The notes under the pieces were generated by a model, which worked only from the letters and a program-made list of their open reading frames with translations, searched no databases and was not told the origin of the DNA. Of a stretch of 12,920 nt of DNA, positions 10,517-12,920 are shown one piece after another. Each line of letters opens with the position of its first letter. The stretch's first letter is position 1. The position numbers were made by a program, and so were the translations under genes. Source of the stretch: a virus. Taxonomy: Duplodnaviria > Heunggongvirae > Uroviricota > Caudoviricetes. The stretch lies in IMG/VR virus record IMGVR_UViG_2609459769_000019; one strand, given 5' to 3'.

Positions 10517-10939
10517 TCAGAAAAGCCGGGGCTGCGTGCGCTCCTGATGCAGGCGACGCTGGTTGCGGATAACGGAGTAAATCTGCGTCTCTGACATCTG
10601 GTAATGGCGGCGCAGGGTTTCAATTTTTTCACCCTGGCTCCAGCGGGAAAAAATCTCATTATTGCGCAGTTCGGTGAAAAGGGATTCACCGACCGGGAGA
10701 TAATAACCACGCCCGCCCATGTACCCGGCCTGTGCGGCCGCAACCTTACGGGCAAGCATTCCCGCCTGAGCAGATTCAATCCCCTGACGGTGCAGTTCAG
10801 CACTGATCACATCAACCAGGTCACGCAGCGTGCCGGGCCAGTTCTTTTTCAGCTCATCATCAGGAATATCATCCAGACGGTCAATCAGCGCGTGCAGCTG
10901 TTCGCTGTCACCAAACATGCTCATCTGTGTTTCAGCCAT
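10517..10939 (-). CDS. Mor/C-family transcriptional activator (140 aa; by size and position more likely the C-type late activator)
   Basis: ATG at 10939 with GGAGG 6 nt upstream; acidic N-terminus and basic C-terminal HTH-like region typical of Mor/C proteins; sits immediately upstream of lys. Confidence 0.75.
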   Translation of the reverse strand: MAETQMSMFGDSEQLHALIDRLDDIPDDELKKNWPGTLRDLVDVISAELHRQGIESAQAGMLARKVAAAQAGYMGGRGYYLPVGESLFTELRNNEIFSRWSQGEKIETLRRHYQMSETQIYSVIRNQRRLHQERTQPRLF

Positions 10940-11009: not shown

Positions 11010-11918
11010 TTAAAAAGGGGAGGATTCTTCATACAGCCTGCAAACGCGCTCATAACTCATCACTGTACGCGCTGACACCCGGCCTTTTTGTTTCACCACT
11101 TCCGGCAGTTTCTTCATTGCGCGGCGAATGGTGTCATAAGACGGCATGATATCGAGCATATAAGGCTCATCAGCGTGCCGGTACTGCCATTCAGCGACAA
11201 AATCCTCGTAAGCCTCGGTCATTGGTCGGCCGTTTGACTGGCGATACTGCGCCAGAAATTCGGGCAGCCAGTTAATATCTTCGGCTTTTATTTCCTGGCG
11301 CTTACCAGGTGCCAGCAAAAGCAGGCGTTCAGCGGCGTTCTGCGCCTTGTTAAAGGCTGCAATCCAGCGTTTCAGCGTGATTTCACTCAACGCACGGCTG
11401 TTTCCCTTTTTGGCGTTCGCCGTCTCAACCATTGCCACAATGCGCTCGTCCAGTTGCGAACGTGCCAGGTTGTCAACGATAAACCGGATAGCCTTCGCAC
11501 AGCTGAAACCAGGTTGTTGCGCGACTTTCAGAACTTCGCTGACGATCGCGATTCGTGCATCAGCCACCTGGCGCTGGTTTTCAGTCAGAGCATTAAGGCG
11601 TTCGACCATCAGTTGTGGTGATCCGCGATATGCCTCCACCGCATCAACCACGGCAGGCGAGCGTCTGGCCTTTGTCACCACTGGAGCCGGTGATTCATCG
11701 ACTTTTTGAGTCATCAGTTGCAGGGCGTAGCGTTCACGTAATGCCTGCTGCGTCACTTCAGGTAAACAGTCGATGCTGTATTCAGTTGCTTTAGAGCCTG
11801 AGCGACGACGGGAACAACAGCTTTTCCCTTGTACGTAACGTTGTAATGCCTGGCGAATACCTTTTGTTGTAGCAGGCATTCCGGGCGCGCCAATCAGTTC
11901 TTTTGCAATGACATACAT
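11010..11918 (-). CDS. Truncated Mu transposase A homologue: N-terminal DNA-binding domain only (302 aa), no DDE catalytic core
   Basis: ATG at 11918, 1 nt after the ner stop; N-terminus APGMPATTKGIRQALQRY...GSKATEYSIDCLPEVTQQALRER resembles the winged-helix enhancer-binding domain of MuA/Mu repressor as I remember it; ORF stops at about 300 aa against about 660 aa for full-length MuA; terminator follows directly. Confidence 0.55.
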   Translation of the reverse strand: MYVIAKELIGAPGMPATTKGIRQALQRYVQGKSCCSRRRSGSKATEYSIDCLPEVTQQALRERYALQLMTQKVDESPAPVVTKARRSPAVVDAVEAYRGSPQLMVERLNALTENQRQVADARIAIVSEVLKVAQQPGFSCAKAIRFIVDNLARSQLDERIVAMVETANAKKGNSRALSEITLKRWIAAFNKAQNAAERLLLLAPGKRQEIKAEDINWLPEFLAQYRQSNGRPMTEAYEDFVAEWQYRHADEPYMLDIMPSYDTIRRAMKKLPEVVKQKGRVSARTVMSYERVCRLYEESSPF

Positions 11919-11919
11919 A

Positions 11920-12168
11920 TCATGACGCCTTTCTCATATAGCTCTTAACCTGGTATCGACTGGGCCAGATTTCTTCAGGCGATACCCCAAGAGCATCAGC
12001 AATTATTTGCTGATACGGTCGGCAAGGAGTACGTAATACGCTTTTCAGCGAATCCCTGCTGTAACCAGCCTTTAAAGATAAAGAGCGCAGTGATAAGCCA
12101 GCCATGTGTAAGCGCGCCTTGATGATTTCAGGCGGCCAATCGTGATCTGAAACTTCTCTTCTACTCAT
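11920..12168 (-). CDS. ner: Ner-like DNA-binding regulator (82 aa)
   Basis: ATG at 12168 with AGAGGAAG upstream; ...LSLRSLSLKAGYSRDSLKSVL...QQIIADALGVSPEEIWPSRY matches the Mu Ner family signature (IIA.AL...P...WPSRY); divergent from the repressor gene. Confidence 0.85.
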   Translation of the reverse strand: MSRREVSDHDWPPEIIKARLHMAGLSLRSLSLKAGYSRDSLKSVLRTPCRPYQQIIADALGVSPEEIWPSRYQVKSYMRKAS

Positions 12169-12335
12169 ACTTCCTCTATTCTAAAAAGTTACCCGCGCGG
12201 ATATTCGTGCGGATATCTGTACGGGTAAATAATAGAACAAACAAAAGAACCAAATCAAGGTATTTTGTTCTTTTTATTCTTTGCGGTGTTTTTGTTATTA
12301 ATATCAATAAGATAAATAAAAAGGAACCTGAGAGC
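12169..12335. promoter_or_regulatory. Divergent immunity control region between ner and the repressor gene (candidate operators and promoters)
   Basis: AT-rich 167-bp spacer; tandem 12-bp direct repeat CGYGCGGATATY at 12194-12205 and 12206-12217, flanked by inverted TTACCCG (12189-12195) / CGGGTAA (12222-12228); second inverted repeat AGAACAAA (12234-12241) / TTTGTTCT (12264-12271); TAGAAT -10-like hexamer on the minus strand. Confidence 0.5.
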
Positions 12336-12920
12336 ATGAACATGAAAAACAGTTCTTTTCTCGACGAAGGAAAAGAACCAGTGATCGAACGGATTTTTCG
12401 TCTTGCAGAGCGTTACAAATCGAGAAGTGAGGCGGCTAGAGCATGGGGAATAAACGTTCAGACATTGCAGAACTACTACAAAAGGAGAAACAATCAGCCG
12501 CCACCACAACCAAGAAAGCACCATCTCCAGAACATTGCAGAAAGAGAACATGTATCTATGGAGTGGCTAGTCAATGGTTATGGTGATGAGCCAAGCATGA
12601 AAAAAGAACCAATTGAACAAACAAAAAGAACAAAAAAACAAAGAATTGATGATAGTGATTCCATCATCATGAGGGCGTGGGACTCGCTAACTTCATCTGA
12701 ACAAGAGATTTTGTCCAACTTATTGATCAGAAAAGGGGCCGAACTACTAACCGTTTTGCTTGATACAGATATTCAAAAACTGCACTCATTGAGCGGAGTC
12801 AAAAGAGCACTAGCATTGAGTCTACAAGAGTTACCCGATGATACTGTAAGAGAGATTTATGAAGAATGTGAAGCTAAGGTTAATCATTTAAATGTAACCC
12901 AGAAAAAGGCTGGTGCGTAA
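12336..12920 (+). CDS. Prophage repressor (194 aa): HTH N-terminal domain joined to a Mu c-like C-terminal domain
   Basis: ATG at 12336 (second ATG at 12342) preceded by AAGGAA; the track's longer ORF starts at a GTG at 12207 inside the operator region; N-terminus has a classical HTH (RSEAARAWGINVQTLQNY); C-terminal segment LLIRKGAELLTVLLDTDIQKLHSLSGVKRALALSLQELPDDTVREI resembles the Mu repressor C-terminal region from memory; gene is distinctly AT-rich. Confidence 0.65.
   Translation: MNMKNSSFLDEGKEPVIERIFRLAERYKSRSEAARAWGINVQTLQNYYKRRNNQPPPQPRKHHLQNIAEREHVSMEWLVNGYGDEPSMKKEPIEQTKRTKKQRIDDSDSIIMRAWDSLTSSEQEILSNLLIRKGAELLTVLLDTDIQKLHSLSGVKRALALSLQELPDDTVREIYEECEAKVNHLNVTQKKAGA

Follow-up and report, generated by a model that had tools for sequence, protein, structure and literature searches.

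A dyad of phased boxes between ner and the repressor gene as the probable Ner operator of Sp18-type Mu-like prophages

Introduction

In phage Mu, the repressor gene and ner are divergent, and a Ner-family gene stands first in the early operon with the transposase gene next. The same arrangement is found in the DNA studied here, IMG/VR virus record IMGVR_UViG_2609459769_000019 (12,920 nucleotides; this whole stretch is called the window below). It is a Mu-like Escherichia coli prophage of the Sp18 type in reverse orientation, with ner on the minus strand and a repressor gene diverging from it on the plus strand. We describe the intergenic region between these two genes and, above all, a 40-bp GC-rich element within it that we propose as the Ner operator. 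What we say of Mu and of phage D108 is based on the phage sequences, the GenBank annotation of Mu and general knowledge.

The Ner protein of D108 is reportedly monomeric and is said to oligomerise on DNA, and we know of no structure of Mu Ner in complex with DNA. EnrR of Edwardsiella piscicida is a monomer, two molecules of which bind side by side on a short palindrome, CTATAG, centred on a TpA step (PMC9023278). In Pseudomonas transposable phages of the B3/Fc02 type, the repressor and early promoters (pE, pC1 and pC2) lie overlapping or face to face around a first gene that resembles ner (PMC9936078). All that has been reported of Sp18 itself is that this Mu-like prophage is apparently intact and was not induced by mitomycin C (PMC2669165), and our literature search found no paper that defines the operators of Sp18-type phages.

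Results

From the DNA sequence and its comparison among relatives, the intergenic region is probably the lysis–lysogeny switch of Sp18-type phages, composed of an early promoter (Pe), a dyad of Ner boxes and a group of repressor half-sites (Table 1). A first-pass annotation of the window had reported a 12-bp unit repeated in tandem, inverted arms around it and a position shortly upstream of ner. We found all three. The copies CGCGCGGATATT (12194-12205) and CGTGCGGATATC (12206-12217) lie head to tail and agree at 10 of 12 positions (83%), as a repeat search also reported; the arms TTACCCG (12189-12195) and CGGGTAA (12222-12228) bracket them; and the element as a whole lies 21-60 bp upstream of the ner ATG (12168, minus strand). 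The repeat search additionally returned all of 12189-12228 as one imperfect palindrome with arms of 19+19 nt, matching at 15/19. When 12169-12335 was shuffled 5000 times with dinucleotides preserved, a 12-nt tandem of at least 10/12 arose in 39 shuffles, a palindrome with 19-nt arms of at least 15/19 in 19, and both together in two. TpA steps are present at 12190/91, 12202/03, 12214/15 and 12226/27, and because these four positions are in phase, the 12-bp period extends over four 8-bp boxes rather than two. The spacers between the boxes are 4 bp each and GC-rich. The two outer boxes make up what had been called a palindromic frame.

The motif comparison among related prophages that the first-pass annotation had put forward as a check found the 40-bp element conserved in 47 loci. 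As relatives we took loci that encode a related Ner: E. coli variants, 15 bacterial genomes and 34 viral contigs, together with a Mu-like insert in an Stx2c (Shiga toxin 2c) phage, Pseudomonas phage VW-6B and Yersinia phage Tongde. The 47 loci comprise 33 distinct upstream sequences, which can be aligned ungapped over the whole stretch between the ner start and the promoter, and the element occurs in them in register, in 25 distinct versions. It is spread over at least 10 genera, with examples from Escherichia, from Yersinia and Pseudomonas phages, and from Kluyvera, Pantoea, Mixta, Erwinia, Izhakiella, Buttiauxella, Leminorella and Symbiopectobacterium. The common plan of the 47 loci begins with a -35 TTGAnn, 17-18 bp, a -10 TAtnnT and then T; continues with ttTTAYCC, N4, aGATAACC, N4, GGTTATCC, N4 and GGRTAAct; and ends with TTTT, aGGATAG, the Shine-Dalgarno sequence and ATG. 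Box columns G12, T14, A15, C18, T26, A27 and C29 are invariant, and the 4-bp spacers are variable. In locus L030, where Ner is 100% identical, the boxes are the same and the spacers differ (GCAC->GTCC, GCGC->GTGC).

Symmetry was counted in 24 aligned distinct versions of the element. The central boxes are not direct repeats in 19 of them: in 12 they mirror each other (GATAACC/GGTTATC) and in seven they are asymmetric (e.g. GATACCC/AGTTATC). A tandem reading holds only for the window-type versions and for L005, which has GGATATCC twice, and the window looks like a direct repeat because its boxes GGATATTC and GGATATCT are nearly self-palindromic. A tandem, iteron-like array was ruled out by the relatives' 19 versions. 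Mirror cells are complementary in 80.7% of cases, compared with at most 44% when the partner is slid. Changes on both sides were seen in nine mirror pairs, a count matched by 4/500 shuffles, and an A->T change in one central box is paired with T->A in the other, so that symmetry is kept (5 versus 14 versions). Spacer columns 8-11/30-33 are largely asymmetric. Judged by this alignment, the conserved object is a dyad of boxes, neither an iteron array nor a continuous stem. The rationale offered earlier, that tandem sites spaced by one helical turn are the known mode of binding of Ner-type proteins, is not borne out, since the Mu and D108 sites are inverted repeats at the same relative position.

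Pe is the sole consensus promoter match in 11900-12500. In a position-weight scan it is the top ner-sense match, with its -10 at one register, in nearly all distinct loci. Read from 12228 to 12189 towards the ner ATG at 12168, the element starts one base past the end of the Pe -10 (12229), a layout also found in Mu and D108, and it therefore spans the predicted start of transcription and the first 35-40 nt of the ner leader. That start is placed by sequence near 12222, which would be within the first box or spacer. On the other strand, candidate Pc1 is the best c-sense match in the window (score 8.0). Most loci have it in register, where it scores 5-8, and it is a weak match to consensus. Its transcript would begin near 12188-89, so that the candidate promoter would stand face to face with Pe across the Ner boxes. 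At the position of Pc2, the position-weight scan showed an A/T-rich, -10-like hexamer directly before a conserved TCAAT block in many loci.

The ner leader belongs to the most conserved block of the region. This block (12176-12191; consensus TAACTTTTTAGGATAG, window version AACTTTTTAGAATAG) carries about 1.8-2 bits per column across the 33 distinct sequences and overlaps the last Ner box, the possible fifth box, the ner Shine-Dalgarno sequence and the candidate Pc1 -10. It may serve Ner as a fifth box, or a repressor promoter as its -10.

Nearer the repressor gene, the first-pass annotation had pointed to a second inverted pair as a candidate repressor operator. Both of its members, AGAACAAA (12234-41) and TTTGTTCT (12264-71), are present, but they are not mirror partners of each other. 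Instead, the repeat search found three inverted repeats whose half-sites are nested around ~12257-12258, the upstream edge of the Pe -35, and fill the spacer between -35 and -10; they overlap core elements of Pe (the -35 at 12253-58 and the spacer). The putative repressor operator is larger than had been described. Every relative has its own nested inverted repeat at the position of these A/T-rich arms, for example ATCACGAAAAATACC-N8-GGTATTTTTCGTGAT in L009.

Over all pairs of the 33 distinct loci, we correlated the similarity of the element and of the arms with the identity of the encoded proteins, and we observed a double dissociation. The element tracks Ner (rho 0.67-0.74; partial rho 0.67 given the repressor and 0.66 given the transposase), with a rho of 0.06 for the repressor and of -0.03 for the transposase N-terminal DNA-binding domain given Ner. 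The arms track the repressor N-terminus (rho 0.50, partial 0.50), with a rho of 0.01 for Ner.

Natural exchanges of single components gave the same picture. About 100 E. coli genomes encode an identical Ner (WP_001310454.1) together with a different, 176-amino-acid repressor (WP_000077536/8) and different arms. Their alignment shows near-identity, with three variable columns in total, across the ner leader, the 40-bp element and the TAAATAAT block containing the Pe -10. In place of the AGAAC arms, these genomes have ATACC/GGTAT and GGTGAT arms, and the promoter core AAATCAAGGTATTTT is retained. Between the window and L006, Ner is 100% and the repressor 45% identical, the element agrees at 40/40 positions and the arms at 58%, an outcome repeated by the repressor-swap pairs L004/L041 and L009/L010. 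Where Ner is exchanged, as between L004 and L005 (Ner 55% identical, transposase N-terminus 99%), the boxes change from GGATAACC/GGTTATCC to GGATATCC twice. Where the transposase has diverged, as between L012 and L046 (transposase N-termini 46% identical, Ner 84%), the elements are identical.

The GC-rich element had been suggested as a Ner site, and the comparison supports this assignment: the element is kept in 47 loci, tracks Ner and not the repressor or transposase, and lies where Mu and D108 have their Ner sites. The assignment of the A/T-rich dyad as a probable repressor operator also gains support, as it brackets the Pe -35 and changes whenever the repressor type does. An immunity specificity different from that of Mu, as proposed, agrees with boxes unlike those of Mu and D108 and with at least two clearly different repressor/arm types in E. 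coli behind an identical Ner.

Several points weigh against this reading. The element adjoins ner and the arms are nearer the repressor gene; each thus lies close to the gene that it tracks, so that linkage across recombination breakpoints yields part of the correlations. Two features are independent of linkage, the conservation of boxes over spacers and the position of the arms around an invariant promoter core. Both Pc1 and Pc2 are weak consensus matches. Part of the most conserved block, TAACTTTTTAGGATAG, falls outside the 40-bp dyad, and four boxes alone do not account for this block. Our literature search found no binding, footprint or transcription-start data for this phage group. Finally, RNA of 12186-12240 in the c sense is predicted to form a hairpin of 17 bp (-23.1 kcal/mol, z = -4.87), and asymmetric mirror positions that are compatible with G.U pairing number 60 in the c sense versus 30 in the ner sense.

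These last two observations raise the alternative that the palindrome acts mainly in RNA, either as a 5' stem-loop that affects stability or translation of the repressor-sense transcript or as an attenuator in the ner leader (a hairpin followed by CUUUUU). In 19/24 versions the c sense has the lower minimum free energy of the two strands, and the ner-sense leader also folds (-19 kcal/mol, z = -3.3), its stem being followed by a conserved ACTTTTTAG. We nevertheless consider a mainly RNA-level function unlikely. The sequence itself is conserved and not just the pairing: the GATA/TATC cores are invariant, the TpA steps keep an exact 12-bp phase, and mirror columns 9/32 and 11/30 are unpaired in the ner sense in 15-16 of the 24 versions. 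Neither an intrinsic terminator nor a known RNA family was found at the element by a terminator scan and by Rfam at threshold, and in D108 the TTTATAG tract lies in the loop of the dyad, not after it. As the relatives are not independent, a few inherited changes may underlie the G.U bias. Good folding and the G.U bias do make a secondary role in RNA possible.

The remaining alternatives keep the element as a protein site and change the protein, or dispense with function. In Mu the operator region doubles as a transposase enhancer (PMC3820752), and the transposase here keeps the PF02316 Mu DNA-binding domain, so the element could be bound by the transposase N-terminal domain as an enhancer like Mu O1-O2/IAS (internal activation sequence), or else by the immunity repressor. 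This is highly improbable. The partial rho of -0.03 and the pair L004/L005, with the same transposase N-terminus and different boxes, ruled out the transposase-enhancer reading; L012/L046 show the reverse case, and the element is unchanged when the repressor is swapped. Repressor and transposase N-terminus are moreover not detectably homologous (BLASTP found no similarity between them, E=1.5), so the two proteins need not share sites as they do in Mu. We give almost no credence to the boxes being sites for a host protein, such as the DnaA box TTATNCACA, or functionless chance repeats. Relatives' TTATCCGCA or TTATCCACT match 7/8 specified positions of a DnaA box, but that is the best in any locus, the window reaches 6/8 at best and no locus has a full box, which ruled DnaA out. 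The boxes change together with Ner, unexpected for a host site, and the shuffles, together with the conservation of the element in at least 10 genera, exclude chance. The reading that we prefer remains a Ner dyad combined with a separate repressor operator.

Further readings were also rejected. The GAAC motifs are not end-type transposase sites, since the prophage end bears TTTTAAGC-type repeats instead. An integration host factor (IHF) site at the conserved AAATCAAGGTATTTT core matched at only 8/9 positions and is lost in TTGACA loci, the invariant part being the Pe -35. A rule by which one repressor residue specifies the arms (TLQ with GTTC arms, TLN with GGTAT/GGTGAT arms) fits most loci and fails in L005. 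Elsewhere in the region, 12302-12314 (TATCAATAAGATA) matches the IHF consensus WATCAANNNNTTR at 8/9 specified positions. This sequence lies within a conserved TCAAT..GATAAA block ~30 nt upstream of the repressor start; L047 and L017 have perfect 9/9 matches at the corresponding place. It is possibly an IHF site by sequence, as in the Mu operator region.

We observed mosaicism among E. coli loci. Compared with the window, L002, L006, L007 and L023-L033 show an identical ner and element combined with at least two clearly different repressor and arm types (194 and 176 amino acids), and L030 carries a variant of the window-type repressor that is 86% identical across the first 100 residues. The recombination boundary lies directly after the TAAATAAT block at the Pe -10. 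In the 176-amino-acid type, the ancestral start has apparently been lost (ATGAGAAAAGAAC -> TTAGAAAAGCACC), and translation starts ~10 codons later.

The ner product matches Pfam PF13693 HTH_35 (E=2.5e-19), PHROG 769 'transcriptional repressor' and, among PDB sequences, Mu Ner (1NER/1NEQ, E=9e-9) and EnrR (7F9H, E=2e-8). Its gene is the first of the early operon and has a transposase with a PF02316 N-terminus downstream, the gene context of a Mu-type Ner operator. The divergent repressor matches PHROG 3037 'transcriptional repressor' (E=2e-59); its only Pfam matches, HTH_23 and HTH_psq, are both sub-threshold, and no solved structure is related to it by sequence. The gene at the repressor position is homologous in 45/48 loci, that is, in all where it is readable. 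In an intact copy (L001) the order is ner, a 696-amino-acid Mu-type transposase, an AAA ATPase and Gam, and the divergent 194-amino-acid gene adjoins the prophage end.

Sp18-type Mu-like prophages are present in ~200/5426 complete E. coli genomes, many of them O157 or other Shiga-toxin producers, and were also found inserted into Stx phages. A locus 99.9% identical to window positions 11800-12920 is carried by ~89 complete E. coli genomes, mainly O157 and other Shiga-toxin producers. In the window, the transposase open reading frame (11010-11918) is shortened to 302 amino acids, and mor (10517-10939) and then a lysozyme gene come directly after its stop. Homology to the intact prophage ends at 11076, with a junction near 11076-11080 whose left side matches the gp16/mor region. 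The junction was found in 0/5426 complete E. coli genomes, pointing to either an early-region deletion of ~8-9 kb private to this source or an assembly artefact. If the junction is real, Pe would read nearly straight into mor.

Two sets of motifs lie inside the repressor gene. Within its first 15 codons, GTTCTTTT and AAAAGAAC form a perfect 9-bp inverted repeat (12352-12359 and 12371-12378; also 12319-12327). At repressor 5' ends, a Ser-Phe/Leu motif is present in 22/30 distinct sequences, with Ser always TCT after a codon ending in GT and the next codon Phe TTT in 20 (GTTCTTTT) and Leu TTA in two. Lys-Glu is encoded by AAAGAA in 26/29 sequences where it was found, and many loci have a third AAAGAAC at codons 3-4. 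As the motif is kept across immunity types, it is under selection at the nucleic-acid level; it might serve as an additional operator, enhance transposition or form alternative hairpins in the mRNA close to the start codon. Further downstream (12606-12645), AAGAACCAATTGAACAAACAAAAAGAACAAAAAAACAAAGAAT encodes KKEPIEQTKRTKKQR and contains GAAC at 12606, 12616 and 12628, the second and third of which have the 12-bp distance of the operator half-sites at 12235/12247 (GAACAAACAAAAGAAC). This stretch could be a distal operator or mere lysine-rich coding sequence.

Table 1 Features of the ner/repressor control region and the adjoining genes
Feature	Position	Strand	Description
ner/repressor intergenic region	12169-12335		167 bp; region studied
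Early promoter Pe (predicted)	12229-12258	-	-35 TTGATT 12258-12253, 18-bp spacer, -10 TATTAT 12234-12229
Proposed Ner operator	12189-12228		40-bp dyad of four 8-bp GGWTAWCC-like boxes, TpA centres exactly 12 bp apart
Boxes of the proposed Ner operator	12187-94; 12199-206; 12211-18; 12223-30		AGTTACCC; GGATATTC; GGATATCT; GGGTAAAT
Tandem units of the first-pass annotation	12194-12217	+	Spacer and box in each unit; contain both central boxes
ner leader	12169-12188	-	Shine-Dalgarno AGGAAG 12170-75; possible fifth box 12174-81 (GAATAGAG on minus strand)
Proposed repressor operator	12234-12280		Four GAAC-type half-sites: GAAC 12235-38 and 12247-50, GTTC 12267-70, ATTC 12276-79
Candidate repressor promoter Pc1	12154-12182	+	-35 TTCTCT 12154-59, 17-bp spacer, -10 TATTCT 12177-82
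Alternative candidate repressor promoter Pc2	12277-12304	+	-35 TTCTTT 12277-82, 16-bp spacer, -10 TAATAT 12299-304
ner	11920-12168	-	82 amino acids, Ner/HTH_35 family; ATG at 12168; RefSeq WP_001310454.1
Immunity repressor gene	12336-12920	+	194 amino acids; HTH repressor family distinct from the Mu c protein; WP_001056416.1

Discussion

In the switch that we propose, a sigma-70 Pe would drive ner and the transposition genes. Ner, a small monomeric helix-turn-helix protein, would assemble on the four boxes and perhaps on a degenerate fifth (12174-81). Its array would cover the start region of Pe, so that the protein dampens its own operon, and would block repressor transcripts initiated at the element or running through it, such as those from candidate Pc1. 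With repressor transcription blocked, the phage would be held in the lytic mode, as Ner does in Mu. In a lysogen, the repressor, probably as a dimer of dimers, would sit on the four GAAC-type half-sites and occlude Pe. The analysis itself establishes the repeats, how they are conserved, how they are placed relative to a conserved promoter and the double dissociation; from these we infer which protein belongs to which element, the number of molecules, the starts of transcription and the effect on the repressor promoter.

A more elaborate combination, in which a phased Ner oligomer, a simple recognition code and a palindrome acting in both DNA and RNA come together, is one that we put forward only tentatively. 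By analogy with EnrR, a closely packed pair of monomers may occupy each TpA-centred box, and the four or five boxes with their 12-bp period may form one clamp over two face-to-face promoters. On the RNA side, the palindrome may serve as a 5' hairpin of the repressor-sense transcript. As for a code, Ner has DWP in both GATATC-box lineages (the window and L005) and DWH in all GATAAC-type Ner proteins, in Mu Ner and in EnrR. The change from GATAACC/GGTTATC to GATATCC/GGATATC coincides with a His-to-Pro change in the conserved DWH motif, in two lineages that are distant from each other. Across these two lineages only, this is a hint that the DWH/DWP difference is a recognition determinant.

A conserved Ner/operator module joined to interchangeable repressor/operator modules would explain the immunity types. 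The module boundary predicts which prophages exclude each other and supplies defined sequences for footprinting, and the family-wide alignment is a data set on how small monomeric Ner proteins read DNA. The region is an ordinary phage switch, a previously uncharacterised control region of the Mu ner/repressor type and no new kind of system.

How does it compare with the known members? In Mu, a dyad, AGCTAGCTAAGT-TTTTAC-ACTTAGTTAAAT with an N6 spacer (1029-1058), likewise separates the Pe start from the start codon of ner, and the Mu record labels promoter features on both sides of it as 'part of Ner binding region'. The second promoter annotated there, at 1063-1101, would be the analogue of candidate Pc1. 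The Mu leader motif GCTAACTTTATAGAT is similar to GGTAACTTTTTAGAAT here, and D108 has GCTACTTTATAGCGT at the same place. In contrast, the box sequences are unrelated to those of Mu, and four, perhaps five, boxes at 12 bp take the place of two 12-bp half-sites. The repressor of the window, a PHROG 3037 protein, is not of the winged-helix type of Mu c and transposase and is not homologous to the transposase N-terminus, and its putative half-sites, unlike those of Mu, are centred on the Pe -35. D108 also has a perfect dyad, CCGTGAGCTAC-TTTATAGC-GTAGCTCACGG with an N8 spacer, ~25 nt upstream of ner, but its layout is 11-8-11, its sequence is another and its Ner is only distantly similar. The B3/Fc02-type phages belong to another lineage with other sequences, and operator boxes are undefined there. 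EnrR (PDB 7F9H/7F9I) is of the same fold family as the Ner studied here (E=2e-8), and its CTATAG site resembles the GATATC/GATAAC box cores, so that by analogy the EnrR pair on CTATAG is a plausible model for a single box. EnrR, however, binds AT-rich DNA globally and counteracts H-NS, whereas the boxes here are set amid GC-rich spacers. Arg47, through which EnrR contacts bases, is aligned with Asp39 of the Ner studied here, and the specificity of the two proteins must therefore differ.

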